Part shown: in pieces, positions 10,158 to 64,000 of the stretch | How the letters are laid out: the number at the start of each line of letters is the position of its first letter | How positions within the stretch are numbered: the stretch's first letter is position 1 | NCBI GenBank assembly: GCA_040954595.2 | Contig: CM082588.2 | Span: 248,001-312,000, forward strand | From: Balanoglossus misakiensis | Taxonomy: Eukaryota > Animalia > Hemichordata | Reading direction: 5' to 3' | DNA: 64,000 nucleotides | The notes under the pieces: model-generated | What the model was told of the DNA's origin: nothing | The model's database searches: none | Seen by the model: the letters and a program-made list of their open reading frames with translations, nothing else | Program-made: the position numbers and the translations under genes

Positions 10158-12315
10158 GTGGACGGATATTTCGATGGCATTGGAATAAGTACATTCCAAA
10201 GAGAAAAAACAAGCTAATAAATTTTTGTCTCAGGGGCAAGTGTTACCAGAACACCAACCCAGATGGTGAACCATTTGTTTCTCGATATCGTTTAAACACA
10301 TGTGTGTGTGTGGAGCGACTGTGGTTTAATTCACGGTCGCTATAAAGTTTGTCAATGTCACCACGGTCATTGACCGTGATGTCACCTGGGTCCGGTGTAT
10401 ATGTTTTCTCCAATACCCGCAATGTCGTTCAACATCGTGCTCGTTGAAAGTTATTGGGAAAAGTCGATCTGGAAAGCAGTGCGAGATTGTTGCGCCTTAG
10501 GAATGCGACTCGCTTGATTGATCGCACCCACTTCGGGCAAAAGTCGTGATTGGAAAACGTCTGTTTGAACCCTTCGACCATAACACATGGGGAACGCAAA
10601 TTTTTGCTTCAGCAGACTGGGGTACAGTGTCTGACATAATATCAAGTAAAATTCTATGCAATTTGCAACGCTCGCCTTGAAAAAATGTGTCCTTTTAAGT
10701 TTTAAGAAGAGAGGTGTCAATAGGGAAGAGTTTGAAATTTCACTTGGAACTTTCAGTTTAGGGAGACGGGCGGGTTGTGACGTTCGCAAAACAATTCACG
10801 TCATTTCATATTCAAAAGACGCCAACGAGGGTAAAGCTGGTCGTTTCTAACTTTGACGATGCCTACAGTGTACATGTAAAATCTAGCTGTTTATGTTTCA
10901 TTGTGACACCGCCTTTCTTTGTGAGGAGCTAGAGGATCCTCATAGCACAATGGTAGTAGTTTCCTTTGTGTTGTGACAACTCTCAGTTGTATAAGACCTA
11001 TAGGGTTGTCAATGGTTTGTCCAAACCGTTTAGCGCTTTGTTCATGCTTGTCTTTGTCAAGTGCACACCTGTTTTTTTTATATACAAATTGCCCCTCCAC
11101 TGTCTATGGTTTCACCGAAGATCGAGACAGTGGTATACACATGCAGATAACACGGTACTTGCAAATGCCTCTTCTGGGATTCTTTCGAACATCGCGCCTC
11201 AGACAATCAAAATAAACCCATAGAATTAGAACTTTTTAAATTCCTACCTGCGTGTCTCAACCAAGGGAGTGGTACCTCTTAATAATGCGGTGGTTTGGTG
11301 GTGACCAGAGTGACCTGAATCCCAAACACTGGCAAACGATTGGTAATCATGATGTTGGCCTACCGCAGATTGTACATCCATGTTGAAATTTCAGGTCCTT
11401 CAAGCAGGCTCAAGTGTGGTATTAAACTGAAAACAAGCAGAAAATTTCATTCAACAACAGACCGATACAAACAGCAAAGAATACTAGTATTTGCGCACAT
11501 CTCTCTGGAGGAGAGGAAGAGATTTGTCAATGTCAGAGATATATTGTTCACCAACTCATTGACAATAGAAACAACATACTGTGTAAAGGTTTGCTTTGAG
11601 TCCAAATAATGCCTTAGATAGATCCATTCGTTGTCACGATTCTTCTTGTTAAAATTTAGTCACTTCACACGGGAGAACAATCGTTAAGAAAGGTGTGAAA
11701 CGAGCGGATGGCTTGTTTCCTGTGTCCCACACCTGAGCTTGTCATCCATTGTGCAGCGTGTCCATAACACAAGCGGGTAGAGCGCCACCTGCGTCTGAAG
11801 ATCCCAACCAGGCATTAGTCAGTAATTTCAACACGCATCGTTCGTTAAAAATGTATAAAAAAAATACTGGGAGCTAATTGCAGGTTTATATTTTCAGAAA
11901 TTTACATGGTTTGAAAAATATCATTACCTGAAACACGTATTTGATTTTTCCGATGGAAATTCTGTTTCTTTTTGACACAATGTAGTTTGGAAGATAATGA
12001 CGTATGCATTGTTTACGAATCTACGGATGTTGTCAGTAACATTCTTCCCGAAAAAAGTTTTGACTTTGACTCAGTTCGGTGTTTTGCTAGCAGACAGCCT
12101 CTAGTGATCCTGTCGTTGTTATCATTGTCAAATACCTTCCGTGTTCTGTCCACACATTGTTCAGGTAAGTTTTTTTCTCCACTCCCCACCCCCACTCTGA
12201 ATACCGTACGGTAGTTTACTTTCACGTCACCAGTTGAGTTGCCGATTAAAACTTTTAAAAAGTATTTTGTCCTCAACTATGTCCTCAACTTTTACTGTCT
12301 TTCACGTTTCAGAGA

Positions 12316-14118
12316 ATGGCAACCACAACGCACACATTCCATTCAATGAAAGTAACTGAGCTGAAGGATTTGTTGCGAAGACGAAGTCTTCCCATCAGTG
12401 GCAAAAAGGCAGACTTGATTGAACGACTTGAACTTTCTGATCTTAGTCAGATTGAACTGAAGAACCAACTGAAAAAGTTGGATTTATCTCAGTCTGGTTC
12501 TGTAACCGATCTTGTGAAGAGACTGCAGTCTCACAGGATCAAGGAAAGAGGTGAGCATGTTTTTATACACCTGTATTATCAAACACCTAGCAATTCCAAC
12601 TTAGCTTATCTCAGCCCTGGAGTATTTCAGATAGGACTTCTGTTCATATGCATTTCCCTGTTAGTAACTTGGACATAGCATTCTAGTATCACATTACCAG
12701 GGGGATTTGGTACAGTACCTTCAGCTAAAAAAATCTTGTCTCTATTTTTCTTTCTTTCAATCAAACAGGATGTACCAATGCTCTGATGTTACCACTTGAA
12801 ATGCCGAAGAAACAGAGAGTCAATCCCTTTGAGGATCCATGGCCAATGAAGTGTAGAGGTTGCGGTCTGGTTGTACCAAACAACCAGCAGATGGCACATG
12901 TTAACAAATGTTGGTTTCAAAATGGTGAACCCAATGTCTATCTGATGCATGCACAGAGTCAGTACTGGGGAGGTAAGTGCATCTAATATTGCCTCATCTC
13001 ATCTTTTCATGGTTTTCTTGATGTGCAAAATGTGTTGTTTTGTCAAATTGCTTTTGTAGATGCCTGATGTTTTTTCCTTTATTTTCCAGGGCGATTTGAG
13101 TTGTTGATGGCATTTCCATTGAATGGCTCCTTTAAAGATGTTGATCTCGCTCTAAGGTATACTTGGATGCAGTGTTGTTACGGCCATTCCAGTGAAATGG
13201 ACATCTACCCACCAGCTGAGTTTCAGAATGCTCTTGTAAGTCCTGAAAATTTCATTATTTCACACACATTTCACACACACAGTGTCATCACATTACTGTA
13301 ACATTGACTTGACAGGCTGTTATGTTACGGCTGATTACCAAAGTTGATAAAGAACCGAGGTGAGATATTGGCAGTTACAGGTTAACAGCACTCATACATG
13401 TACTAAAGGACTTGTGTCTATATCCATACTCTTTCCTTCGTGTAGATATCCTGCCAACAACCTAAGCAAGTGGTAATGTTGAATTCCTCATACATACAAG
13501 GCATGGGTCAAGGGTCATCATCTCAGAAGCCAATGGACTCATTGCTACAGATGTACACAGTAGTTGGAAGCAGAATGTTCTATGCGTTTGACATTTGTGA
13601 TGAGACTACCATTTATATAAGAACACTTGGTAAGTAGTCCATATGAAATACGCATCCAATATTCTTTACTGGATAGCCAACACTGGGTTTAGATATGTAG
13701 TCAGTCTTGTTTGTGTATTTGTATGCTGTTGGGATATGTGATGATTTAAAGGAAAGGAGGTCTGATTGTGTTACACATAAGCTGATAATTTGTTCTTCTT
13801 ATTTCAGGCCTGAAATGTCTCCGACGACCCCTGTTCAGTGACTTGAAAGACTTCACCAAAGGCAAGCACATTCTGATGAGAAATGAACTGGTTAGCATCC
13901 CTTGTTTCAAGTGCAACAAACCTTCCAAAGTCTTCACTCAGGATGTCCATTGGAACAGTGATGATGTTAACAACAACAACTTTGGTGGTGATGCCAAGTT
14001 CTTCTGTTCAAAGCCGTGTGGTAAATCGTTTGGTTTTCATCCAAGTGAGTTGAAGCCATTCCTCAACTCTCCAAGGTCTGGCTGTTGCAACTATAAGGGT
14101 TTGAATTACTTTGAATAA
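12316..14118 (+). CDS. Tandem SAP domains fused to a Cys/His-rich domain resembling prokaryotic pRiA4b ORF-3/MM3350-like proteins, about 359 aa
   Basis: Exons 12316-12550, 12769-12972, 13090-13235, 13446-13629 and 13808-14118 give 1080 nt in frame with all introns GT-AG. Two SAP motifs (MKVTELKDLLRRRSLPISGKKADLIERL; LSQIELKNQLKKLDLSQSGSVTDLVKRL) are followed by CRGC..MAHVNKC, DVDLALRYTWMQCCYGHSS, YAFD, LMRN..CFKCNKP and PFLNSPRSGCCNY. Confidence 0.8.
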
Positions 14119-15534
14119 GTTGAAACTATAAGGTTAGGGCTTTAATCTTTAAGAAACATCTGTCATTTCTGTTTGGGCTTTGAGGACGCGCGGGTATCGA
14201 CGAATGCAGAGATGCATTTTCAGTCAGATTGGTCTGAGATTTTCAGAAAATTTTCTGTGTGCCAAAAGTGACTGTAACCCTGATAATCATTTCTTAATAT
14301 GACAGCCACAGCAAAATCTGACGCTGAATTTTAACCACTAGAAAAGCCTAAGGTGATAACACATTTCAAAAGTATGTATTTTTTAAATTTGGCGTTAGAA
14401 CATACTTGAGTTGACAGGAGCAACATTTTAATGTTTTGATTTCTCAAGATGTGTAAATTTTAATTTTTTCTAAATATGTACAGCATTGTTATGTGGGCAA
14501 ATTGTTTGCCATGTTGGACCAAAATGACTTTTTGTTTTTGTTTTGTGACATCTCCAATGCAAGTGCATGCATGTTGATGCTGACTATAGTGGTTTGTCAT
14601 ATCTTTAATTTTTTTAGGATGAGTTGTTGATGGGAGCAGTCTTTGTCACCGTGATTTTATGATTAACTGTCATGTAATATTTTACTAGTGCTGTTGCCAT
14701 CTGAATGTGTCAACCAGTAAAAGGGAGCCAAGTTTGAGATTTGCTGCAGGGATATGTTAATATGACTTGACATGATGATGGCAAAATGTCAAGTTCAGTT
14801 TGGTGCAATTGAGTGTCAGATTGTGACATTACATTCTTTTACTTCCACAGTCTTGCCTTTTTATTTATTTATTTCTGAAACAGTTTTGTATTTAGAATTC
14901 TTTGTATTTTTGTAATAAAAGTGTGATAAATTTACTGCATGTCTGTTTTGTCTTTTGATTAATTGTGTCTATATTGTGTTCAACTTCTAGCGAATGTTAG
15001 GACAGCCCACTCTAGTGGCCAAATCAGGTATCTGTACTTTAATTGTCATGGTCACAATGAGAATAAGAAAAGTACGTACATGTACGGTATGTTTACTATT
15101 AAAGTCGACCTCCCTCCTGAGCTGAAAGGCAAAGAAAGTTTAAAACAAATCAAGCATTTTCTCCCTCTGATTGAACGTGTTAACCACTGTCCCTCTTTGT
15201 TATAGAGTTAGAAGAAACAGGTGCTTGTGCCAAATTCTTTGAAATATCGCACTTTGCAATCCAGCAACTTGTTATACATTGCCCATAGTGCTAAACGTAT
15301 GTGGGCTGGCCCATCCTTTACTGTCGAAAGATACCTGGTTGCCATTGGTGGCGCTGTGCCAACTACAGAAAGAGAAGGAGACATAACTGCCGCATCACAG
15401 CAGGTGATGGATGCAGCTCGCAATAAAATTAGCATTTTACTAGCTATTTGATATCCGCCTAAATCCACCAATAAACACTTCAGATCTGCATGTGCACATC
15501 ACACGAGCTGTTAACTTGATACAAGTCATACAAT

Positions 15535-42735: not shown

Positions 42736-44269
42736 CGTCAAACTCAAAACTGGTTGTCGAACATCCAGCAGTATTTTGATAAACGCGTCCTACTTATAAT
42801 TTTTATTTTAGTGTAACTTAATTTCGCCTACTACTGCTAAAAATTAAATCTCAAAAACTGATTTTGCCAAGCACTGACTGCAGCATAACATATCACGCAC
42901 AGGGGGCATGATGTAAGTGATTGCCAATCATGCATTGGGCGTACCTAACCTCAAAAGCACAGTCGTGATTGGCCAATCCTAGCGTGAGTGGGGTATATGA
43001 ACGTGCCAATTAAGGATACGTCTTCATGAATTATTAATTTGTTTATGATAGGCCAACAAAAAGTTTGCGCAATCATATTTTTGACAGTTGTGGCCAGAAG
43101 ACTGAAACCTACGTAAGTACATGTATTTCACTTTAATGTTTTTTTAGTTTTTTTTCTTCGAAATTTACCTGATGTTTCTAAAAATCTCGCCTGAAATTGT
43201 AACCAATAAGTTCCACACACTCGTTCAAGCATTTCCATTCAATAATAAACACCTGTGCGGCTCTTTTCATAAAATGAATGAATTTAAAAAGAATAATTAG
43301 ATGTCGTCTGCATCGGACGTCCTCAAAAGGGAAGCCGCCGCTGGGCCAGGGAAAGTTATTTTTTTTATTAAATTTTCAAACTTATGTTTTAAAATGTTGA
43401 ATAATTATTATCGTGCCTAAATGTCATTGCAGTATTTACGCAAATTTTGTCTGTGCACGTTGTCGTCTGCGTCCAAATTTGTGAACCTGCTCTTTGCTGC
43501 AATCGCAGTGTGTCCATGCAAAATGTTAAGCGGGGTAGAGGGCAGTGACTATGTCGATTTTTAAATACAATTTTCGTGCGGGACCTTCTAACTTTTCATG
43601 GAAATATCAATTAAGCGTTCATTTTTCATTATTTTTCGGTCCACCGGAAAACCAACGCCATATTGGGGAAAATGCTGCCAACTGGAGAGAAGAATCTCAG
43701 TAACGACAACTCGGCGCCTGGTGACGACGTGTCTTTTGTTCTTGTGGTTGAACCAATCATAGGTAAGCAGACTCCATTCTGATACAATTGACTTTGTGAT
43801 TGGTCAGTAGTTTCAGACCCAGTATAATGAAGCCGTATTCGGACCACAATAATCAATTATAGTGTGCTTTAGTTTATTTGATCTAACTTGAACGTACAGG
43901 TTTCCTTTGTTTGCTTCAGTCTACTTTTGTTAGAATCTGGTCCTGGTATTCTTTAGGTTATTGTGATTTTGGGTATAGTTTTCATAATTGGATTGAGCCA
44001 GTTGTATGTTGGAGGAGAGATTAGTGCTTTGTATTGCAAATGTTTGTGGTCTTTGATCAGGATTAATTATTGTTGATAGTTGAATCTGGATGATGTGACT
44101 TCTGTTCCTTTGTTTTTGCTTATTATGGAGAATTTGATCGTTTAAATGTAGCAAGTGTGTTAATTAGATGAGGTTGTGGATGTTTAAATCTATCAATATA
44201 ATCTCAATCAAGTCTGTGTAGGCCTAAAATTAAGAGCTGTGGGACAATTTTTATATTAAATATAAATGT

Positions 44270-45990
44270 ATATATTGTGCAAAAAAACAACCTTTCATTC
44301 TCCCAAAGGAGAGAAGGGAGATGTGTTGGGTTTACAAAGGGTAAAATTGGGTGCTTAAGATAAAGGGGGGTTGTACACACAGTGTGGTGTCTATAGCAAC
44401 AGCAAAATATATTGCTATAAATGTGTAATATTGTGTAAATTAATTTTCATTCTCCCAAAGGAGAATAGGGAGATGTGTTGGGTTAATCAAGGGTAAAATT
44501 AGGTGCTTAAGATAAAGGGGGGTTGTAAACAAAGTGTGGTGTCTATAGCAACAGCAAATATATTGCTATAAATGTGTAATATTGTGCAAAAAAACATTTT
44601 CATTCTCCAGAGGAGAATAGGGAGATGTGTTGGGTTAATCAAGGGTAAAATTGGGTGCTTAAGATAAAGGGAGGTTGTAAACAAAGTGTGGTGTCTATAG
44701 CAACAGCAAATATATTGCTATAAATGTGTAATATTGTGCAAAAAAACTTTTCATTCTCCAGAGGAGAATAGGAGATGTGTTGGGTTTATCAAGGGTAAAA
44801 TTGGGTTGCTTAAGTTAAAGGGGGGTTGTAAACAAAGTGTGGTGTCTATAGCAACAGCAAATATATTGCTATAAATGTGTAATATTGTGCAAAAAAACTT
44901 TTCATTCTCCAGAGGAGAATAGGGAGATGTGTTGAGTTAATCAAGGGTAAAATTGGGTGCTTACAACAAAGTGTGGTGTCTATAGCAACAGCAAATATAT
45001 TGCTATAAATGTGTAATATTGTGCAAAAAAACTTTTCATTCTCCAGAGGAGAATAGGGAGATGTGTTGGGTTAATCAAGGGTAAAATTGGGTGCTTAAGT
45101 TAAAGGGGGGTTGTAAACAAAGTGTGGTGTCTATAGCAACAGCAAATATATTGCTATAAATGTGTAATATTGTGCAAAAAAACTTTTCATTCTCCAGAGG
45201 AGAATAGGGAGATGTGTTGAGTTAATCAAGGGTAAAATTGGGTGCTTACAACAAAGTGTGGTGTCTATAGCAACAGCAAATATATTGCTATAAATGTGTA
45301 ATATTGTGCAAAAAAACTTTTCATTCTCCAGAGGAGAATAGGGAGATGTGTTGGGTTAATCAAGGGTAAAAGTGGGTGCTTAAGATAAAGGGGGGTTGTA
45401 AGTAAAGTGTGGTGTCTATAGCAACAGCAAATATATTGCTATAAATGTGTAATATTGTGTAAAAAACTTTTCATTCTCCAGAGGAGAATAGGGAGATGTG
45501 TTGGGTTAATCAAGGGTAAAATTGGGTGCTTAAGATAAAGGGAGGTTGTAAACAAAGTGTGGTGTCTATAGCAACAGCAAATATATTGCTATAAATGTGT
45601 AATATTGTGTAAAAAACTTTTCATTCTCCCAAAGGAGAATAGAGAGATGTGTTGGGGTTATCAAGGGTAAAATTGGGTTGCTTAAGTTAAAGGGGGGTTG
45701 TAAACATAGTGTGGTGTCTATAGCAACAGCAAATATATTGCTATAAATGTGTAATATTGTGTAAAAAACTTTTCAATCTCCCAAAGGAGAATAGGGAGAT
45801 GTGTTGGATTTATCAAGGGTAAAATTGGGTGCTTAAGATAAAGGGGGTTGTATACATAGTGTGGTGTCTATAGCAACAGCAAATATATTGCTATAAATGT
45901 GTAATATTGTGTAAAAAACTTTTCATTCTCCCAATGGAGAATAGGGAGATGTGTTGGGTTAATCAAGGGTAAAATTGGGTGCTCAAGATA
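44270..45990. repeat. Tandem array of a ~152-bp unit, about 11 copies, two shortened to ~134 bp
   Basis: GTGTGGTGTCTATAGCAACAGCAAATATATTGCTATAAATG recurs at about 44382, 44534, 44686, 44837, 44971, 45122, 45256, 45407, 45557, 45709 and 45859. Confidence 0.95.
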
Positions 45991-46337
45991 GAGGTTCTTA
46001 TGATATGCGTCTTAGCTGAAGCATTTGTGAAATGACAACTTTGGGAAATTTTGTCTCCAGTGGTCTTGGTGGTGCACGGTTATCTTGATTGATGTGTGTA
46101 GTTTGGATGTTGATGATTTTTGCAGACAGAGGTATTTGTTGGTGATGGTACAATTGGGCAGTGATCATTGTGTTTTTCAGGATTTCAGGATTTAAATTGT
46201 AGGATATTTTAGATTTGTGGATACATTTGCTGTTTGAATTGATGGTTGTTAATACAGTGGTGATATTGTCAAGGCAATCGAGAGATGACTGTGTAGGTTA
46301 TGGTGATCAGAATGTTCCATGAAATTCTCTTCAAATT

Positions 46338-48355
46338 ATCCCAACATGATGTAACATATTATTTCTTCTTCATTTCAGGTACTAATTAAAGTTTGGTTGA
46401 GAAAGCAGAGGGAGGTTGTAAAACACAATGCATGCTTAACAGTTCCTTGTAAGTTATTACAGATTGCAGATTTCTTTGGCTTGGATGATGTACATGTACG
46501 GGTTTCCAGGTAAAGATGTGAAAAGTGGTACTCACCATGTAAAGTGTCAGATAGTTAAAGCAAATTTCAACAACGCATGCAGAGCTGATGGATTCAAAGA
46601 TTCAGTATCCGGAAAATACTGACCAAGAGTGGTAATGGGAAACAACTAGACTGGATATGGACCCCACTGCACTGGAAAACAGCAAGACTGGACATGGACC
46701 CCACTCCAAGTTATTACAGATTGAAGTTCAAGTGAATGCTGCCAACGCCAGAGAAGATTCACAGTGACGACAACTCGACGCCTGGTGATGATGGTACTTA
46801 CGGTTCAACTAATCATTGGTAAGCAGACTTCATTCTGATACGAATCAACTTTGTGATTATGTGCTTTAGTTTATTTGACCTAACTTAAACATTTCCTTTG
46901 TTAGCTTCAGTCAGCTTTTGTTAAAATCCCAACATGATGTAACATATTATTTCTTCTTCATTTCAGGTACTAATTAAAGTTTGGTTGAGCAAGCAGAGAG
47001 GGGTTGTAAAACACAATGCATGCTTAACAGTTTCTTGTAAGTTATTACAGATTGCAGATTTCTATGGACCCCACTGCACTGGAAAACAGCAAGACTGGAC
47101 ATGGACCCCACTCCAAGTTATTACAGATTGAAGTTCAAGTGAATGCTGCCAACGCCAGAGAAGATTCACAGTGACGACAACTCGACGCCTGGTGATGATG
47201 GTACTTACGGTTCAACTAATCATTGGTAAGCAGACTTCATTCTGATACGAATCAACTTTGTGATTATGTGCTTTAGTTTATTTGACCTAACTTAAACATT
47301 TCCTTTGTTAGCTTCAGTCAGCTTTTGTTAAAATCCCAACATGATGTAACATATTATTTCTTCTTCATTTCAGGTACTAATTAAAGTTTGGTTGAGCAAG
47401 CAGAGGGGGGTTGTAAAACACAATGCATGCTTAACAGTTTCTTGTAAGTTATTACAGATTGCAGATTTCTTTGGCTTGGATGATGTACATGTACGGGTTT
47501 CCAGGTAAAGATGTGAAAAGTGGTACTCACCAGGTAAAGTGTCAGATAGTTAAAGCAAATTTCAACAACGCATGCAGAGCTGATGGATTCAAAGATTCAG
47601 TATCCGGAAAATACTGACCAAGAGTGGTAATGGGAAACAACTAGACTGGATATGGACCCCACTGCACTGGAAAAGAGCAAGACAGGATATGGACCCCACT
47701 GCACTGGAAAACAGCAAGACTGGACATGGACCCCACTCCAAGTTATTACAGATTGAAGTTCAAGTGAATGCTGCCAACGCCAGAGAAGATTCACAGTGAC
47801 GACAACTCGACGCCTGGTGATGATGGTACTTACGGTTCAACTAATCATTGGTAAGCAGACTTCATTCTGATACGAATCAACTTTGTGATTATGTGCTTTA
47901 GTTTATTTGACCTAACTTAAACATTTCCTTTGTTAGCTTCAGTCAGCTTTTGTTAAAATCCCAACATGATGTAACATATTATTTCTTCTTCATTTCAGGT
48001 ACTCATTAAAGTTTGGTTGAGCAAGCAGAGGGGGGTTGTAAAACACAATGCATGCTTAACAGTTTCTTGTAAGTTATTACAGATTGCAGATTTCTATGGA
48101 CCCCACTGCACTGGAAAACAGCAAGACTAGACATGGACCCCACTCCAAGTTATTACAGATTGAAGTTCAAGTGAATGCTGCCAACGCCAGAGAAGATTCA
48201 CAGTGACGACAACTCTACGCCTGGTGATGATGGTACTTTAACGGTTCAACTAATCATTGAGACTTCATTCTGATACGAATCAACTTTGTGATTATGTGCT
48301 TTAGTTTATTTGACCTAACTTAAACATTTCCTTTGTTAGCTTCAGTCAGCTTTTG
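46338..48355. repeat. Tandem array of four units alternating long (~590-625 bp) and short (~400 bp)
   Basis: ATCCCAACATGATGTAACATATTATTTC recurs at about 46338, 46926, 47333 and 47959. The short units lack an internal ~180-bp segment. Confidence 0.9.
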
Positions 48356-48895: not shown

Positions 48896-51800
48896 GATGT
48901 GCAGTGATGAAATGCTATATTGCTAAACTCTGAGCACATCAACACACCACGTGTGTGCTTCGGACAGGGTTGTGTCCTAGTGACGCCTCTGCTTCGGACA
49001 GGGTTGTGTCCTAGTGACGCCCCTGCTTCGGACTGGGTTGTGTCCTAGTGACGCCTCTGCTTCGGACTGGGTTGTGTCCTATAGTGACGCCCCTGCTTCG
49101 GACTGGGTTGTGTCCTAGTGACGCCTCTGCTTCGGACTGGGTTGTGTCCTAGTGACGCCTCTGCTGCGGACTGGGTTGTGTCCTATAGTGACGCCCCTGC
49201 TTCGGACAGGGTTGTGTCCTAGTGACGCCTCTGCTTCGGACTGGGTTGTGTCCTATAGTGACGCCCCTGCTTCGGACTGGGTTGTGTCCTAGTGACGCCC
49301 CTGCTTCGGACAGGGTTGTGTCCTAGTGACGCCTCTGCTTCGGACTGGGTTGTGTCCTAGTGACGCCTCTGCTTCGGACTGGGTTGTGTCCTATAGTGAC
49401 GCCCCTGCTTCGGACAGGGTTGTGTCCTAGTGACGCCTCTGCTTCGGACTGGGTTGTGTCCTATAGTGACGCCTCTGCTTCGGACAGGGTTGTGTCCTAG
49501 TGACGCCTCTGCTTCGGACTGGGTTGTGTCCTATAGTGACGCCCCTGCTTCGGACAGGGTTGTGTCCTAGTGACGCCTCTGCTTCGGACTGGGTTGTGTC
49601 CTATAGTGACGCCCCTTCTTCGGACTGGGTTGTGTCCTAGTGTACGCCTCTGCTTCGGACAGGGTTGTGTCCTAGTGACGCCCCTGCTTCGGACTGGGTT
49701 GTGTCCTAGTGACGCCCCTGCTTCGGACAGGGTTGTGTCCTAGTGACGCCTCTGCTTCGGACTGGGTTGTGTCCTAGTGACGCCTCTGCTTCGAACTGGG
49801 TTGTGTCCTAGTGACGCCTCTGCTTCGGACAGGGTTGTGTCCTAGTGTATAATAATAAATTTTACTAGATTGTAATCACATAATTAATACTACATTAGTA
49901 AGAATTATAATACTGCCAAATGAATACCAGATGTGATAAACTAAAATTTAAATTGTAATTGCATAATTACTGCTATATGATTAATAGGATTTATAATACA
50001 TAATAACTGACAGAATTAAAGTGACGCCTCTGCTTCGGACTGGGTTGTGTCCTAGTGACGCCTCTGCTTCGGACTGGGTTGTGTCCTAGTGACGCCTCTG
50101 CTTCGGACTGGGTTGTGTCCTAGTGACGCCCCTGCTTCGGACTGGGTTGTGTCCTAGTGACGCCCCTGCTTCGGACTGGGTTGTGTCCTAGTGACGCCCC
50201 TGCTTCGGACTGGGTTGTGTCCTAGTGACGCCTCTGCTTCGGACAGGGTTGTGTCCTAGTGACGCCTCTGCTTCGGACTGGGTTGTGTCCTAGTGACGTC
50301 CCTGCTTCGGACTTGGTTGTGTCCTAGTGACGCCTCTGCTTCGGACTGGGTTGTGTCCTAGTGACGCCTCTGCATCGGACAGGGTTGTGTCCTAGTGTAT
50401 AATAATAAATTTTACTAGATTGTAATCACATAATTAATACTACATTAGTAAGAATTATAATACTGCCAAATGAATACCAGATGTGATAAACTAAAATTTA
50501 AATTGTAATTGCATAATTACTGCTATATGATTAATAGGATTTATAATACATAATAACTGACAGAATTAAAGTGACGCCTCTGCTTCGGACTGGGTTGTGT
50601 CCTAGTGACGCCTCTGCTTCGGACTGGGTTGTGTCCTAGTGACGCCTCTGCTTCGGACAGGGTTGTGTCCTAGTGACGCCTCTGCTTCGGACAGGGTTGT
50701 GTCCTAGTGACGCCTCTGCATCGGACAGGGTTGTGTCCTAGTGACGCCTCTGCATCGGACAGGGTTGTGTCCTAGTGTATAATAATAAATTTTACTAGAT
50801 TGTAATCACATAATTAATACTACATTAGTAAGAATTATAATACTGCCAAGTGAATACCAGATGTGATAAACTAAAATTTAAATTGTAATTGCATAATTAC
50901 TGATATATGATTAATAGGATTTATAATACATAATAACTGACAGAATTAAAGTGACGCCTCTGCTTCGGACTGGGTTGTGTCCTAGTGACGCCTCTGCTTC
51001 GGACTGGGTTGTGTCCTAGTGACGCCTCTGCTTCGGACTGGGTTGTGTCCTAGTGACGCCTCTGCTTCGGACTGGGTTGTGTCCTAGTGTACGCCCCTGC
51101 TTCGGACTGGGTTGTGTCCTAGTGACGCCCCTGCTTCGGACTGGGTTGTGTCCTAGTGACGCCTCTGCTTCGGACTGGGTTGTGTCCTAGTGACGCCCCT
51201 GCTTCGGACTGGGTTGTGTCCTAGTGACGTCCCTGCTTCGGACTTGGTTGTGTCCTAGTGACGCCTCTGCTTCGGACTGGGTTGTGTCCTAGTGACGCCT
51301 CTGCTTCGGACTGGGTTGTGTCCTAGTGACGCCTCTGCTTCGGACAGGGTTGTGTCCTAGTGTATAATAATAAATTTTACTAGATTGTAATCACATAATT
51401 AATACTACATTAGTAAGAATTATAATACTGCCAAATGAATACCAGATGTGATAAACTAAAATTTAAAATGTAATTGCATAATTACTGCTATATGATTAAT
51501 AGGATTTATAATACATAATAACTGACAGAATTAAAGTGACGCCTCTGCTTCGGACTGGGTTGTGTCCTAGTGACGCCCCTGCTTCGGACAGGGTTGTGTC
51601 CTAGTGACGCCTCTGCTTCGGACTGGGTTGTGTCCTAGTGACGCCCCTGCTTCGGACAGGGTTGTGTCCTAGTGACGCCCCTGCATCGGACAGGGTTGTG
51701 TCCTAGTGACGCCTCTGCTTCGGACTGGGTTGTGTCCTAGTGACGCCTCTGCTTCGGACTGGGTTGTGTCCTAGTGACGCCTCTGCTTCGGACAGGGTTA

Positions 51801-52748
51801 AAGTGTCCTAGTGACGCCCCTGCTTCGGACAGGGTTGTGTCCTAGTGACGCCTCTGCATCCGACAGGGTTGTGTCCTAGTGTATAATAATAAATTTTACT
51901 AGATTGTAATCACATAATTAATACTACATTAGTAAGAATTATAATACTGCCAAATGAATACCAGATGTGATAAACTAAAATTTAAATTGTAATTGCATAA
52001 TTACTGCTATATGATTAATAGGATTTATAATACATAATAACTGACAGAATTAAAGTGACGCCTCTGCTTCGGACTGGGTTGTGTCCTAGTGACGCCTCTG
52101 TTTCGGACTGGGTTGTGTCCTAGTGACGCCTCTGCTTCGGACAGGGTTGTGTCCTAGTGACGCCCCTGCTTCGGACAGGGTTGTGTCCTAGTGACGCCTC
52201 TGCATCGGACAGGGTTGTGTCCTAGTGTATAATAATAAATTTTACTAGATTGTAATCACATAATTAATACTACATTAGTAAGAATTATAATACTGCCAAA
52301 TGAATACCAGATGTGATAAACTAAAATTTAAATTGTAATTGCATAATTACTGCTATATGATTAATAGGATGTATAATACATAATAACTGACAGAATTAAA
52401 GTGACGCCTCTGCTTCGGACTGGGTTGTGTCCTAGTGACGCCTCTGCTTCGGACAGGGTTGTGTCCTAGTGACCCCTCTGCATCGGACTGGGTTGTGTCC
52501 TAGTGTACGCCCCTGCTTCGGACTGGGTTGTGTCCTAGTGTACGCCCCTGCTTCGGACAGGGTTGTGTCCTAGTGACGCCTCTGCATCGGACAGGGTTGT
52601 GTCCTAGTGACGCCTCTGCTTCGGACAGGGTTGTGTCCTAGTGACGCCCCTGCTTCGGACTGGGTTGTGTCCTAGTGACGCCTCTGCTTCGGACAGGGTT
52701 GTGTCCTAGTGACCCCTCTGCATCGGACAGGGTTGTGTCCTAGTGACG

Positions 52749-54823
52749 CCCTTACCAAATTTCCGAGTGCTCGGGTGCACCTCGGGTGCACCTAAAATAC
52801 ACCCAAAACACACCAATAGCACTTAGACCCACCCGTAACCTACCTAAAACACACCACTGTAAGATGAGGTGGGTTTTGGGTGGGTGGTGTAACCCACCCG
52901 AAATCCACCCCTACAACATAAACTGAATAGGTGTCTTACGGGTGCACCCGAAATACACCTTCTGATATCAGCACTGGCCGTTAAGGCACCCAAAACACAC
53001 CCGCTTTCGTCTTTGCAACTTTTTCACATCGGGAAGGCACCCAAAACACACCCACTTTCGACTTTGCAACTTTTTCACATCGGGAAGGCACCTAAAACAC
53101 ACCAGCTTTAGACTTTGCAACTTTTTCACATAGGGAAGGCACTCAAAACACACCCGCTTTCGACTTTGCAACTTTTTCACATCGGGAAGGCACCCAAAAC
53201 ACACCAGCTTTAGACTTTGCAACTTTTTCACATCGGGAAGGCACCCAAAACACACCCGCTTTCGACTTTGCAACTTTTTCACATCGGGAAGGCACCCAAA
53301 ACACACCCGCTTTCGACTTTGCAACTTTTTCACATCGAGAAGGCACCCAAAACACACCCGCTTTAGACTTAGCAACTTTTTCACATCAGTTAGTTGATGA
53401 AAAATTATATCATCTGTTGAAGTTGGAAAATTTCTGAATATATTTTATTAAATAATTAACAGCTCCAAGGAATAAAAAACATTTTTTTTGTCCATTTATA
53501 TGTACTGGAATATCGCACAAAATCAAGTTCTGTCTCTTTATTTTGGAGATCACGATTTTAATAAAAGTTTTCCACGATTTATTCACCACAAACTACAACC
53601 CTTGCAAGTTGTACTGGCCGAAGTACAATACTTGACTTTTGACCCGGGACGTCATTAACATACGTAACCGGATTGGTCCATTCATAATAACGTCATTGAA
53701 CAGTCATACTGGCAAGTCCACATCGTAGACACGGAAGTCAATGTCGGAAAGCCATTTCGACGCAGTTTTAGCAAAATTTGTGAAATCGTTTCGTTGTTCC
53801 GACTACTTTAGGCGTCAGAGATGACGTGCGGATATCAAAACACGTAAGATCATGACAAGGGAGGTCAGTCACGTACGTTCATCACGCGCATCGGTCGACA
53901 TGGTCATAACAATGTGGCCGCCATTCTCGATGTCAGTAAACAGTCGCATTCAAACACATCGCGTTTTGATACGACTCGGACGATTGTAAGTACCAAACGC
54001 GTTTTGAACGAACACCTACTCCTGTGGTGTGTCCATTGATAGCTGTTGATTTGACCGTACTCATTACAAGAAATCTCGATCGCCATTTAAGGACGATGAT
54101 GCATGGACGAGCATCCGCGAGAATGGTTCATTCAAAATGGCGTGGACATTGCATGTACGTTGCATAATATCGTTCCCGGACAGAAATGTGAAGCAGCATG
54201 CCTCCGATAACTTAATTATTGCTGTGAAACCACTGACTATATTCTGATCACGGTGACCACATTTCCATCGAACTTAGTGTAGATTACAAGTGTTTGTACA
54301 TAGCTAGTCGAACTGTACTATGTAGCTCTATCATTTTATCCATCATTTTATTTTTACTGTACTGTACAAAAGAACTTTATTAAGTTTACAATTAGCAATA
54401 TATTGACTTTTAGTTTTATTGAACAATAATTGTATTGGCTGTTTTTTTCACATTGTGTGTGTGTGTGTATGAGCCACTGCAGCAACTGCATGATACATCT
54501 ATAATATCATTCAGGTGTGTTTTAGGTGCCACCTAAAGTGCACCCGGAGTATGTTGTTCCGGGTGCGTTTCAGGTGCATCCATACCATATCATACGGGTG
54601 TGTTTTAGGTGCCACCTAAGGTGCACCTCGGATGTGCTCTATTTCGGGTGCCTTTCGGGTGCACCTATAATGCACCTGTTTTGTACACCCGAAACACACC
54701 TAAAGTGACCAATTTAAGGTGGTTTCGGGTGTGTTCTGAGGGGTGTGTTTCGGGTGCCACCTAAGGTGCACCCGGGGTGTGTTCTTTCGGGTGCCTTTCG
54801 GGTGCACCCGATTTTGGTAAGGG
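52749..54823. mobile_element. Non-autonomous CACTA/EnSpm (CMC)-type DNA transposon, about 2.07 kb
   Basis: Termini CCCTTACCAAA and TTTGGTAAGGG form an 11-bp TIR. A CG dinucleotide is duplicated, and removing the element restores the monomer GTGA-CG-CCTCT. Subterminal CGGGTGCAC and AAAACACACC repeats are inverted between the two ends. No transposase ORF. Confidence 0.85.
52983..53388. repeat. 51-bp minisatellite, about 8 copies, inside the transposon
   Basis: AAGGCACCCAAAACACACCCGCTTTCGACTTTGCAACTTTTTCACATCGGG is repeated in tandem. Confidence 0.95.
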
Positions 54824-57800
54824 CGCCTCTGCTTCGGACTGGGTTGTGTCCTAGTGACGCCTCTGCTTCGGACAGGGTTGTGTCCTAGTGACCCCTCTGC
54901 ATCGGACAGGGTTGTGTCCTAGTGACGCCTCTGCTTCGGACTGGGTTGTGTCCTAGTGACGCCTCTGCTTCGGACAGGGTTGTGTCCTAGTGACGCCTCT
55001 GCTTCGGACAGGGTTGTGTCCTAGTGACGCCTCTGCTTCGGACAGGGTTGTGTCCTAGTGACCCCTCTGCATCGGACAGGGTTGTGTCCTAGTGTATAAT
55101 AATAAATTTTACTAGATTGTAATCACATAATTAATACTACATTAGTAAGAATTATAATACTGCCAAATGAATACCAGATGTGATAAACTAAAATTTAAAT
55201 TGTAATTGCATAATTACTGCTATATGATTAATAGGATTTATAATACATAATAACTGACAGAATTAAAATGACGCCTCTGCTTCGGACAGGGTTGTGTCCT
55301 AGTGACGCCTCTGCTTCGGACTGGGTTGTGTCCTAGTGACGCCTCTGCTTCGGACAGGGTTGTGTCCTAGTGACGCCTCTGCTTCGGACAGGGTTGTGTC
55401 CTAGTGACGCCTCTGCTTCGGACTGGGTTGTGTCCTAGTGACGCCTCTGCTTCGGACTGGGTTGTGTCCTAGTGTATAATAATAAATTTTACAAGATTGT
55501 AATCACATAATTAATACTACATTAGTAAGAATTATAATACTGCCAAGTGAATACCAGATGTGATAAACTAAAATTTAAATTGTAATTGCATAATTACTGC
55601 TATATGATTAATAGGATTTATAATACATAATAACTGACAGAATTAAAATGACGCCTCTGCTTCGGACTGGGTTGTGTCCTAGTGACGCCCCTGCTTCGGA
55701 CAGGGTTGTGTCCTAGTGACGCCCCTGCTTCGGACTGGGTTGTGTCCTAGTGACGCCCCTGCTTCGGACTGGGTTGTGTCCTAGTGACGCCTCTGCTTCG
55801 GACTGGGTTGTGTCCTAGTGTATAATAATAAATTTTACTAGATTGTAATCACATAATTAATACTACATTAGTAAGAATTATAATACTGCCAAGTGAATAC
55901 CAGATGTGATAAACTAAAATTTAAATTGTAATTGCATAATTACTGCTATATGATTAATAGGATTTATAATACATAATAACTGACAGAATTAAAATGACGC
56001 CTCTGCTTCGGACTGGGTTGTGTCCTAGTGACGCCCCTGCTTCGGACTGGGTTGTGTCCTAGTGACGCCTCTGCTTCGGACTGGGTTGTGTCCTAGTGAC
56101 GCCCCTGCTTCGGACTGGGTTGTGTCCTAGTGACGCCTCTGCTTCGGACAGGGTTGTGTCCTAGTGACGCCTCTGCTTCGGACTGGGTTGTGTCCTAGTG
56201 ACGCCCCTGCTTCGGACTGGGTTGTGTCCTAGTGACGCCTCTGCTTCGGACTGGGTTGTGTCCTAGTGACGCCCCTGCTTCGGACTGGGTTGTGTCCTAG
56301 TGTACGCCCCTGCTTCGGACAGGGTTGTGTCCTAGTGACGCCTCTGCTTCGGACCGGGTTGTGTCCTAGTGACGCCTCTGCTTCGGACAGGGTTGTGTCC
56401 TAGTGACGCCTCTGCTTCGGACTGGGTTGTGTCCTAGTGTACGCCCCTGCTTCGGACAGGGTTGTGTCCTAGTGTACGCCCCTGCTTCGGACTGGGTTGT
56501 GTCCTAGTGTACGCCCCTGCTTCGGACAGGGTTGTGTCCTAGTGACGCCTCTGCATCGGACAGGGTTGTGTCCTAGTGTATAATAATAAATTTTACTAGA
56601 TTGTAATCACATAATTAATACTACATTAGTAAGAATTATAATACTGCCAAATGAATACCAGATGTGATAAACTAAAATTTAAATTGTAATTGCATAATTA
56701 CTGCTATATGATTAATAGGATTTATAATACATAATAACTGACAGAATTAAAATGACGCCTCTGCTTCGGACTGGGTTGTGTCCTAGTGACGCCCCTGCTT
56801 CGGACTGGGTTGTGTCCTAGTGTACGCCCCTGCTTCGGACAGGGTTGTGTCCTAGTGTACGCCTCTGCTTCGGACTGGGTTGTGTCCTAGTGACGCCTCT
56901 GCTTCGGACTGGGTTGTGTCCTAGTGACGCCCCTGCTTCGGACTGGGTTGTGTCCTAGTGACGCCTCTGCTTCGGACTTGGTTGTGTCCTAGTGACGCCT
57001 CTGCTTCGGACTGGGTTGTGTCCTAGTGACGCCTCTGCTTCGGACTGGGTTGTGTCCTAGTGACGCCCCTGCTTCGGACTGGGTTGTGTCCTAGTGTACG
57101 CCCCTGCTTCGGACAGGGTTGTGTCCTAGTGTACGCCCCTGCTTCGGACAGGGTTGTGTCCTAGTGTATAATAATAAATTTTACTAGATTGTAATCACAT
57201 AATTAATACTACATTAGTAAGAATTATAATACTGCCAAATGAATACCAGATGTGATAAACTAAAATTTAAATTGTAATTGCATAATTACTGCTATATGAT
57301 TAATAGGATTTATAATACATAATAACTGACAGAATTAAAATGACGCCTCTGCTTCGGACTGGGTTGTGTCCTAGTGACGCCCCTGCTTCGGACTGGGTTG
57401 TGTCCTAGTGACGCCCCTGCTTCGGACAGGGTTGTGTCCTAGTGACGCCTCTGCATCGGACAGGGTTGTGTCCTAGTGTATAATAATAAATTTTACTAGA
57501 TTGTAATCACATAATTAATACTACATTAGTAAGAATTATAATACTGCCAAATGAATACCAGATGTGATAAACTAAAATTTAAATTGTAATTGCATAATTA
57601 CTGCTATATGATTAATAGGATTTATAATACATAATAACTGACAGAATTAAAATGACGCCTCTGCTTCGGACAGGGTTGTGTCCTAGTGACGCCCCTGCTT
57701 CGGACAGGGTTGTGTCCTAGTGTACGCCCCTGCTTCGGACTGGGTTGTGTCCTAGTGACGCCTCTGCTTCGGACTGGGTTGTGTCCTAGTGACGCCTCTG

Positions 57801-60800
57801 CTTCGGACAGGGTTGTGTCCTAGTGACGCCTCTGCTTCGGACTGGGTTGTGTCCTAGTGACGCCCCTGCTTCGGACTGGGTTGTGTCCTAGTGTACGCCC
57901 CTGCTTCGGACAGGGTTTTGTCCTAGTGACGCCTCTGCATCGGACAGGGTTGTGTCCTAGTGTATAATAATAAATTTTACTAGATTGTAATCACATAATT
58001 AATACTACATTAGTAAGAATTATAATACTGCCAAATAAATACCAGATGTGATAAACTAAAATTTAAATTGTAATTGCATAATTACTGCTATATGATTAAT
58101 AGGATTTATAATACATAATAACTGACAGAATTAAAGTGACGCCTCTGCTTCGGACTGGGTTGTGTCCTAGTGACGCCTCTGCTTCGGACTGGGTTGTGTC
58201 CTAGTGACGCCTCTGCTTCGGACTGGGTTGTGTCCTAGTGACGCCTCTGCTTCGGACAGGGTTGTGTCCTAGTGACGCCTCTGCTTCGGACAGGGTTGTG
58301 TCCTAGTGACGCCTCTGCTTCGGACTTGGTTGTGTCCTAGTGACGCCTCTGCTTCGGACAGGGTTGTGTCCTAGTGACGCCTCTGCTTCGGACTGGGTTG
58401 TGTCCTAGTGACGCCTCTGCTTCGGACTTGGTTGTGTCCTAGTGACGCCTCTGCTTCGGACTGGGTTGTGTCCTAGTGTACGCCCCTGCTTAATAATAAA
58501 TTTTACTAGATTGTAATCACATAATTAATACTACATTAGTAAGAATTATAATACTGCCAAATAAATACCAGATGTGATAAACTAAAATTTAAATTGTAAT
58601 TGCATAATTACTGCTATATGATTAATAGGATTTATAATACATAATAACTGACAGAATTAAAGTGACGCCTCTGCTTCGGACTGGGTTGTGTCCTAGTGAC
58701 GCCTCTGCTTCGGACTGGGTTGTGTCCTAGTGACGCCTCTGCTTCGGACTGGGTTGTGTCCTAGTGACGCCTCTGCTTTGGACAGGGTTGTGTCCTAGTG
58801 ACGCCTCTGCTTCGGACAGGGTTGTGTCCTAGTGACGCCTCTGCTTCGGACTTGGTTGTGTCCTAGTGACGCCTCTGCTTCGGACAGGGTTGTGTCCTAG
58901 TGACGCCTCTGCTTCGGACTGGGTTGTGTCCTAGTGACGCCTCTGCTTCGGACTTGGTTGTGTCCTAGTGACGCCTCTGCTTCGGACTGGGTTGTGTCCT
59001 AGTGTACGCCCCTGCTTAATAATAAATTTTACTAGATTGTAATCACATAATTAATACTACATTAGTAAAGAATTATAATACTGCCAAGTGAATACCAGAT
59101 GTGATAAACTAAAATTTAAATTGTAATTGCATAATTACTGCTATATGATTAATAGGATTTATAATACATAATAACTGACAGAATTAAAGTGACGCCTCTG
59201 CTTCGGACTGGGTTGTGTCCTAGTGACGCCCCTGCTTCGGACTGGGTTGTGTCCTAGTGACGCCTTTGCTTCGGACTGGGTTGTGTCCTAGTGACGCCTC
59301 TGCTTCGGACTGGGTTGTGTCCTAGTGACGCCTCTGCTTCGGACTGGGTTGTGTCCTAGTGACGCCCCTGCTTCGGACTGGGTTGTGTCCTAGTGACGCC
59401 CCTGCTTCGGACAGGGTTGTGTCCTAGTGTATAATAATAAATTTTACTAGATTGTAATCACATAATTAATACTACATTAGTAAGAATTATAATACTGCCA
59501 AATGAATACCAGATGTGATAAACTAAAATTTAAATTGTAATTGCATAATTACTGCTATATGATTAATAGGATTTATAATACATAATAACTGACAGAATTA
59601 AAGTGACGCCTCTGCTTCGGACTGGGTTGTGTCCTAGTGACGCCCCTGCTTCGGACTGGGTTGTGTCCTAGTGACGCCTCTGCTTCGGACTGGGTTGTGT
59701 CCTAGTGACGCCTCTGCTTCGGACTGGGTTGTGTCCTAGTGACGCCTCTGCTTCGGACTGGGTTGTGTCCTAGTGACGCCTCTGCTTCGGACTGGGTTGT
59801 GTCCTAGTGACGCCTCTGCTTCGGACTGGGTTGTGTCCTAGTGACGCCTCTGCTTCGGACTTGGTTGTGTCCTAGTGACGCCTCTGCTTCGGACTTGGTT
59901 GTGTCCTAGTGACGCCTCTGCTTCGGACTGGGTTGTGTCCTAGTGACGCCTCTGCTTCGGACTGGGTTGTGTCCTAGTGTACGCCCCTGCTTCGGACAGG
60001 GTTGTGTCCTAGTGTATAATAATAAATTTTACTAGATTGTAATCACATAATTAATACTACATTAGTAAGAATTATAATACTGCCAAATGAATACCAGATG
60101 TGATAAACTAAAATTTAAATTGTAATTGCATAATTACTGCTATATGATTAATAGGATTTATAATACATAATAACTGACAGAATTAAAATGACGCCTCTGC
60201 TTCGGACTGGGTTGTGTCCTAGTGACGCCTCTGCTTCGGACTGGGTTGTGTCCTAGTGACGCCTCTGCTTCGGACAGGGTTGTGTCCTAGTGTATAATAA
60301 TAAATTTTACTAGATTGTAATCACATAATTAATACTACATTAGTAAAGAATTATAATACTGCCAAGTGAATACCAGATGTGATAAACTAAAATTTAAATT
60401 GTAATTGCATAATTACTGCTATATGATTAATAGGATTTATAATACATAATAACTGACAGAATTAAAATGACGCCTCTGCTTCGGACTGGGTTGTGTCCTA
60501 GTGACGCCCCTGCTTCGGACTGGGTTGTGTCCTAGTGTACGCCCCTGCTTCGGACAGGGTTGTGTCCTAGTGTACGCCCCTGCTTCGGACTGGGTTGTGT
60601 CCTAGTGTACGCCCCTGCTTCGGACAGGGTTGTGTCCTAGTGTACGCCCCTGCTTCGGACAGGGTTGTGTCCTAGTGACGCCTCTGCATCGGACAGGGTT
60701 GTGTCCTAGTGTATAATAATAAATTTTACTAGATTGTAATCACATAATTAATACTACATTAGTAAGAATTATAATACTGCCAAATGGAATACCAGATGTG

Positions 60801-63800: not shown

Positions 63801-64000
63801 CGGACTGGGTTGTGTCCTAGTGACGCCTCTGCTTCGGACTGGGTTGTGTCCTAGTGACGCCTCTGCTTCGGACAGGGTTGTGTCCTAGTGACGCCTCTGC
63901 TTCGGACAGGGTTGTGTCCTAGTGACGCCTCTGCTTCGGACTTGGTTGTGTCCTAGTGACGCCTCTGCTTCGGACAGGGTTGTGTCCTAGTGACGCCTCT

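Follow-up and report, generated by a model that had tools for sequence, protein, structure and literature searches.

The 64,000-nucleotide stretch of Balanoglossus misakiensis DNA analysed here (the window) contains a spliced gene whose predicted product joins two tandem SAP domains to a pRiA4b ORF-3-like domain of prokaryotic type. This is a new domain architecture inside a known, functionally blank superfamily. The pairing of the two modules had been proposed in a first-pass annotation and is borne out by profile matches of 74.1 bits for SAP and 95.4 bits for a prokaryote-only profile of the second domain. The features of the gene are as follows.

12165-12312, forward strand: probable 5'-UTR intron (donor CAG/GTAAGT, 9/9 positions; acceptor with 14/18 pyrimidines)
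12316-12550, forward strand: coding exon 1, residues 1-78, two tandem SAP domains (residues ~8-39 and 41-73)
12769-12972, forward strand: coding exon 2, residues 79-146, linker and N-terminal C2HC finger (12852-12911)
13090-13235, forward strand: coding exon 3, residues 147-195, first half of the predicted ubiquitin-like (beta-grasp) MM3350-type core, with D165, R169 and W172 and with C175, C176 and H179 (13173-13187)
13446-13629, forward strand: coding exon 4, residues 196-256, variable insert plus the core hairpin YxFD..TT
13808-14118, forward strand: coding exon 5, residues 257-359, R281-N282, C4 finger (C289, C292, C323 and C327 at 13903-14019), C-terminal NSPRSGxC tail with C350 (14065-14088), and stop
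14914-14919, forward strand: first AATAAA after the stop, a possible polyadenylation signal by position only

The joined exons give a coding sequence of 359 residues, from the ATG at 12316 to a stop codon ending at 14118. All four introns (218, 117, 210 and 178 nt, in phases 1, 1, 0 and 1) are of the GT-AG type, with a GC content of 33-38% compared with 40-45% in the exons. The donors fit MAG/GTRAGT at 7-8 of 9 positions, a score of at least 7 being reached by only 13 of the 258 GT sites between 11.5 and 15 kb, and the acceptors contain 13-17 pyrimidines per 18 nt. Six combinations of GT and AG sites near the exon boundaries leave a frame open (352-375 residues), so that an open frame by itself proves little, and homology to Ptychodera flava is the deciding test. 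The 359-residue model is colinear over its whole length with P. flava XP_070568842.1 (235/361 identities, 65%, 7 gap positions), none of the four predicted junctions coincides with a gap, and exon 5 alone retrieves the same protein with E 3e-35. Use of another acceptor, at 13466, would remove 7 residues that align with P. flava, and this alternative was rejected on that ground. At the level of homology, the five-coding-exon model is confirmed as real. That the gene is an artefact of chance splicing, a pseudogene or a bacterial contaminant, a view for which the six open combinations might be cited, is very improbable indeed given an independently annotated protein that is 65% identical and colinear, four canonical introns, an intact frame in which every ligand is kept, and neighbours of animal type (SUEL lectin, C1q).

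The earlier description of the gene as five exons encoding 359 residues stands for the coding part, on the strength of the colinearity with P. flava, but a further, non-coding 5' exon is probable. The donor at 12165 is the best of the 258 GT sites, the acceptor at 12312 sits 3 nt before the ATG, and in-frame stops lie upstream of that ATG. This arrangement suggests an extra non-coding exon upstream of 12165, its start undefined.

No transposon-like repeats were seen flanking the gene. Between 4560 and 10099 lies a cluster of secreted or immune type, comprising a SUEL lectin exon, a tectonin-like propeller, a SnoaL-like gene and a C1q-domain gene. An intronless 453-residue frame at 624-1985 on the forward strand has many hydrophobic segments and resembles small-molecule transporters by eye; nothing in Pfam matched it at E ≤ 0.01. 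Units of 134-152 bp are arrayed in tandem, with a pronounced GC skew, at 44261-45994 and 46656-47474, where a near-perfect duplication of 407 bp also occurs. The region 48956-64000 holds long, strongly AT-skewed arrays of a 34-bp satellite, organised in higher-order units of ~380 bp. The 158-residue frame at 52968-53444 on the reverse strand, which consists of a 51-bp (17-residue) repeat in 7.9 copies with a CxxC-like pattern, is probably a by-product of the repeat.

The SAP profile (PF02037) recognises two stretches within residues 8-73 of the window protein (74.1 bits against a cut-off of 23.9), and residues 1-95 carry a net charge of +8. The SAP domain is an established DNA-binding module in other proteins. 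In the remainder of the chain, the six motifs quoted in the first-pass annotation are all present in the order stated there, and the prokaryotic motifs that it listed are real, being seen in prokaryotic relatives. All 12 putative Cys/His zinc ligands occur, in order, in the window protein, and they are kept in 9/9 eukaryotic and 42-48 of 48 prokaryote-type rows of the alignment. From their pattern we infer three putative zinc sites, C107/C110/H122/C126, C175/C176/H179/C350 and C289/C292/C323/C327, and just ahead of the last of these, the C4 finger, R281-N282 is invariant. Among PDB sequences, the family profile matches the UBZ finger of RAD18 best (E 0.0018 and 0.0021). The window protein has the C2HC spacing CxxC-x11-H-x3-C, with Asn124 two residues after the His of the finger, where RAD18 has Asp. 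Residue 174 is Gln in the window protein and in 5 of the 9 eukaryotic rows, as against Glu in 47/48 prokaryotic rows.

The prokaryotic kinship of the domain, proposed earlier from motifs, is significant by profile search. Residues ~105-354 match positions 10-218 of a profile built from 10 prokaryote-type proteins at 95.4 bits, compared with 6.4 for the best of 1000 shuffles, the ten members of this profile being themselves matches to the P. flava orthologue; a 104-sequence profile gives 75.7 bits. The PF07929 model itself (cut-off 26.6 bits) matches neither the single window exons nor the 65%-identical P. flava orthologue, and other animal members score 19.7-20.7 bits, under the cut-off. Of the prokaryote-type relatives, 5/10 pass that cut-off and 102/104 give a match at E ≤ 0.1. 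These profile comparisons place the prokaryotic relatives at the fringe of pRiA4b ORF-3 (PF07929), and their labels in the Atlas (pRiA4b ORF-3 or 'IS1096 element passenger TnpR family') are those given in the earlier annotation. The motifs WxECCxHxS, YDxGxTT, RN and NSPRxGxC mark this unnamed prokaryotic branch with its three putative zinc sites. Proteins like pRiA4 Orf3, of unknown function, have been described as transposon passengers (PMC3942029).

A scan of GTDB gave at least 600 stretches (598 confirmed, ~1900 estimated), the best 80 of which come from many bacterial and archaeal phyla. Presence is sporadic, with 20/301 genomes in a Chlamydiota sample and 4/301 in an Asgard sample. The family occurs in 4 of 72,556 plasmid records, one copy adjoining an IS110 transposase, and was not found in the 50,697 phages searched; one metagenome scan added 5 loci of prokaryote type. 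No conserved neighbour or transposase family was found among 83 prokaryotic loci or among 117 scanned neighbour proteins (117 of 129, the 12 overlapping the gene having been dropped). The commonest real neighbours in the 83 loci are a short-chain dehydrogenase (6 loci) and a HemD-methylase (5 loci, four of them related planctomycetes); a seven-locus neighbour cluster proved to lie over the gene itself, on the opposite strand. NCBIfam offered nothing useful and PHROGs weak, unrelated matches only. In Deinococcus plasmid proteins of ~730 residues (L127:3989-6193 and L130:3989-6190) the family domain is N-terminal; the first of them also contains DUF6930 and DUF7309, and the next gene encodes a family-B polymerase/exonuclease. 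On a viral contig (L083:2929-6873), a prokaryote-type gene has a reverse transcriptase on one side and a Y-family (IMS) polymerase on the other.

Among eukaryotes, an unindexed search with the P. flava orthologue returned 255 matches at E ≤ 0.001, the best 150 of them matching mostly through SAP alone; a profile search covered the best 120 of 597 matches, from 7998 scored candidates. Named members among the matches listed come from acorn worms (three genera), the annelid Owenia and the green alga Micractinium, and no chordate or echinoderm copies were found among those matches. Saccoglossus has at least seven family loci, P. flava has a second gene, and Glandiceps also has a member. The SAP-SAP fusion is common to three other acorn worms and Owenia, whose SAP pair matches hemichordate SAP pairs best, and gaplessly, in a database that is biased; the Micractinium copy has the family domain without SAP. 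Two sequence features distinguish the eukaryotic copies, a C[ST]xxC in the last knuckle (12/12, against 0/180 prokaryote-type proteins) and NSP[RQ]SG (12/12 against 10/180). A distinct cluster combining PF07929 with zf-MYND is present in ascomycetes in the Atlas. Two giant-virus proteins, Barrevirus A0A3G4ZQD0 (331 residues) and Hyperionvirus A0A3G5ACM7 (251 residues), match the family model with E 1.6e-15 and 3.6e-14 and with TM 0.73-0.75 (BFVD). The Barrevirus protein is longer by ~100 residues, about what a SAP pair would occupy. In IMG/VR, prokaryote-type copies or flanks only were recovered, with no giant-virus or eukaryote-type copies.

Two trees were built, a quick one of 98 rows and a careful one of 57 rows, without the near-identical Saccoglossus copies and most GTDB rows; the latter is unrooted, and its bootstrap was short of settling (0.927). 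The eukaryotic rows (9 in the careful tree, the alga included) form one side of a branch, with support of 99 in the quick tree and 100/98 in the careful one. This single eukaryotic group, together with the common C[ST]xxC insertion, makes a single entry into eukaryotes well supported as far as these sequences go. The window protein is sister to the P. flava protein (100/99), and the acorn-worm copies fall into a conservative subtype (P. flava P0012 and Glandiceps) and a faster one comprising the window gene and the Saccoglossus expansion (100/100). Owenia pairs with the long-branched alga in the free tree (99/93), but an animals-only clade with the alga outside gives p-AU 0.555 (likelihood 1.45 higher), so the pairing is not required. 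The eukaryotes attach beside a Chlamydiota-rich group (94/93; unrooted tree). In a quick LG+G4 tree, groupings of eukaryotes with Asgard copies survive testing (p 0.18 and 0.77); the four Asgard-sample copies do not cluster in the tree. A chlamydial donor was not accepted, because chlamydial rows are oversampled and the Asgard alternatives survive.

We lean, tentatively, towards one old transfer from prokaryotes to eukaryotes, SAP fusion in the bilaterian ancestor and wide loss thereafter. The fusion would date at the latest from the source that the hemichordate and annelid copies have in common; most animals would then have lost the gene, and acorn worms would have duplicated it. As the tree has no root, only the distribution indicates which way the transfer went. 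The first-pass annotation had envisaged a horizontally acquired prokaryotic gene, a claim that is partly supported and holds only in a looser, older form. Homology and the patchy eukaryotic distribution agree with it, but a transfer straight into the acorn-worm lineage is not supported, given the single eukaryotic group that includes an alga and the presence of the SAP fusion in an annelid.

Somewhat less probable than this old transfer is a history in which early eukaryotes already had the domain and nearly all lineages lost it, with no later transfer. The inclusion of a green alga in the single eukaryotic group would suit it, and neither the animals-only clade nor the Asgard grouping that it could accommodate is rejected; it demands very many losses, however, members being few among the 150 matches listed, and the Asgard sample offers copies in just 4/301 genomes, scattered in the tree. 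The general problem of telling transfer from loss is set out in PMC6006793. We regard as doubtful a third history, in which giant viruses moved the gene between the alga, the annelid and the acorn worms in several transfers. The Barrevirus and Hyperionvirus proteins are structural relatives and the Owenia-alga pairing of the free tree is in keeping with such traffic, but that pairing involves a long algal branch and can be dispensed with, the surroundings of the window gene showed no remnants of transposons or viruses, and the gapless match between Owenia and hemichordate SAP pairs, albeit from a biased database, fits one inherited fusion.

Predicted models of the P. flava orthologue (pLDDT 83.6) and of a prokaryote-type protein (pLDDT 90.7) bear out the resemblance to MM3350 that the earlier annotation had pointed to. 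MM3350 (2i1s) is the top match to the orthologue model (Z 11.5, rmsd 4.5, 154 residues aligned; Foldseek E 4.6e-5), and it superimposes on the prokaryote-type model with Z 12.4 and rmsd 3.2 over 132 residues. The models also resemble human SNAPC3 (7xur_B), a subunit of SNAPc, the complex that binds snRNA promoters. For the orthologue, VIA-align gives Z 7.8 and rmsd 4.8 over 178 residues, a Z within the range reached by unrelated models, and Foldseek lists five SNAPc entries at E 2e-4 to 2e-3; for the prokaryote-type model the values are Z 9.1 and rmsd 4.7 over 184 residues, with the next row at Z 6.0 and a Foldseek E of 1e-5. MM3350 and SNAPC3 are the sole two proteins found by Foldseek at E ≤ 0.002, and ubiquitin-like domains reach Z ~5.

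Sequence profiles touch on the same link. One bacterial protein, L129, narrowly passes the Pfam SNAPC3 model (25 bits, cut-off 23.8) and matches the three-zinc family profile at 43.9 bits over positions 38-206, and is a possible prokaryotic relative of SNAPC3. This protein (G622:C27:1784-3593) has at least 581 residues, with a C-terminal pRiA4b ORF-3 domain and a C4 finger. The PF12251 cut-off was passed in 1 of the 301 genomes scanned, and PF12251 matches 4/104 prokaryote-type proteins weakly (best E 0.0095) and the P. flava orthologue not at all at E ≤ 10; a match in L126 was discarded, as it spans just a CxxC finger. In a bacterial cluster of the Atlas, 98% of members carry PF07929 and 47% carry SNAPC3, which shows that the SNAPC3 label is already given by Pfam to some bacterial proteins of PF07929.

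The core of SNAPC3 has been described as ubiquitin-like, with two zinc fingers (PMC9758055). According to the 2022 structure paper (PMC9652321), these fingers are structural and short motifs touch the DNA, among them the minor-groove motif C, a loop (346-353) directly before the C4 finger; DNA is bound only together with SNAPC1 and SNAPC4, and SNAP50 is stated there to be without a known homologous structure. The R281-N282 loop of the window protein is placed like motif C and is a candidate DNA contact, the match being one of order along the chain, before C289, and not of residue superposition. It is conceivable, although we consider it unlikely, that a prokaryotic zinc/ubiquitin-fold scaffold was recruited to eukaryotic nuclei twice, anciently as SNAPC3, which is central to the recognition of snRNA promoters, and again, via giant viruses or algae, as a SAP-tethered DNA-binding factor that the protostome-deuterostome ancestor already had and that only acorn worms and Owenia have kept. 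If this were true, the uncharacterised pRiA4b ORF-3 proteins found on plasmids and insertion sequences would be relatives, themselves DNA-binding, of the ancestor of SNAPC3.

As to function, our preferred reading, held with some reserve, is that the window protein is a nuclear, zinc-stabilised, non-enzymatic DNA-binding scaffold. The SAP pair would tether the protein to DNA or chromatin. Further contacts, with DNA or with partners, would be made as in SNAPC3 by the core, a predicted three-zinc ubiquitin fold whose ancestry is probably prokaryotic; the nuclear location is likewise a prediction. This is the simplest reading of a SNAPC3-like fold to which two SAP domains have been added. A shared fold by itself shows no function, however, and the many invariant polar residues would suit an active site equally well.

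Those residues lend some weight to a metal-dependent enzyme with nucleic acid or a nucleotide as its substrate, aimed at DNA by the SAP pair, which we nevertheless judge rather unlikely. Its active site, on the same low expectation, would comprise CC-x-H...C with D165, R169, D244, T249, R281-N282 and NSPR, all near-invariant in bacteria, archaea and eukaryotes. SAP-bearing nucleases appear among the fold matches (3'hExo 1zbh, FAN1 9gy0 and endonuclease VII 1e7d), the prokaryotic gene stands alone, and ~12 of 117 neighbours are of toxin-antitoxin, restriction or mobile-element type, a figure that comes with no background rate. Against an enzyme, the core matched no enzyme fold, four Cys/His ligands would saturate the metal site, the Glu of prokaryotes (47/48) is Gln174 in the window protein, and PADLOC gave no match for any of six proteins.

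It is improbable that the protein is instead a ubiquitin-reading adaptor in chromatin or DNA repair resembling RAD18, with its UBZ finger and SAP domain. The RAD18 finger is the best PDB profile match, as given above, the core is ubiquitin-like, and the RAD18-type Asp (HLDSC) is present in 8/12 eukaryotic compared with 6/180 prokaryote-type copies. This Asp, two residues after the His, binds ubiquitin in the RAD18 finger, and its replacement by Asn124 in the window protein weakens the reading. The finger is found, moreover, in prokaryotes, which are without ubiquitin, and the eight copies with Asp are close hemichordate relatives and not independent.

The earlier annotation had called the protein undescribed. 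Orthologues do stand in RefSeq (as uncharacterised) and in GenBank (as 'SAP domain protein-like protein 224'), but no paper on them was found. In the literature searched, which was mostly open-access, there was no paper on animal members of the family, no experiment on any member, and nothing joining SNAP50 or SNAPC3 with MM3350 or pRiA4b. The family was unmatched in the main text and two of the four supplements of Simakov et al. 2015 (PMC4729200), whose list of transfer candidates may name it. The gene offers a testable case of a microbial-type domain joined to a eukaryotic DNA-binding module and then kept and expanded in slow-evolving marine worms. The most valuable by-product is that SNAPC3 gains candidate prokaryotic relatives. 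Whether the small single-domain bacterial members bind DNA matters both for how snRNA promoter recognition arose and for what this large, functionally uncharacterised family does.

Comparison with known systems places the window protein as follows. The deuterostome genes of 'microbial type' reported by Simakov et al. 2015 (PMC4729200) include intron-bearing acorn-worm genes that can be aligned to microbial proteins, and they pose a transfer-versus-loss ambiguity like that of the window family; unlike them, the window family has an annelid copy and no chordate or echinoderm copy among the matches listed. P. flava XP_070568842.1, Saccoglossus APU50780.1 and its paralogues share the SAP-SAP-domain architecture of the window protein; they are annotated as uncharacterised or SAP-like, and their precomputed Pfam assignment is SAP alone.

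PF07929, as represented by MM3350 (PDB 2I1S), has the ubiquitin-like core fold predicted for the window family (Z 11.5-12.4 with the models), to which the window branch adds the C2HC and C4 fingers, the CCxH motif and the NSPRxGxC tail. The hairpin also differs, being FDICDETT in the window protein and YD.GTT in the branch, compared with YDFGDWIEH in a bacterial PF07929 member of canonical type; the pattern YDFGDxWxH is taken here as the hallmark of PF07929. The UBZ4 finger of RAD18 is a C2HC finger similar to that of the window protein, and RAD18 also carries a SAP domain (a weak match in the profile search); the window protein differs in having no RING, another order of domains, and Asn in place of Asp. 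In SNAPC3 (SNAP50, PF12251), as in the window family as modelled, a C4 zinc finger comes after a ubiquitin-like core, the superposition covering 178-184 residues over the chain range 151-411 at 10-14% identity. The window family is without the HxxxCxH set of ZF-1 of SNAPC3, given as C221, H313, C317 and H319 in PMC9758055. SNAPC3, moreover, has no SAP domain and functions only as part of a complex, whereas the window protein carries a SAP pair.
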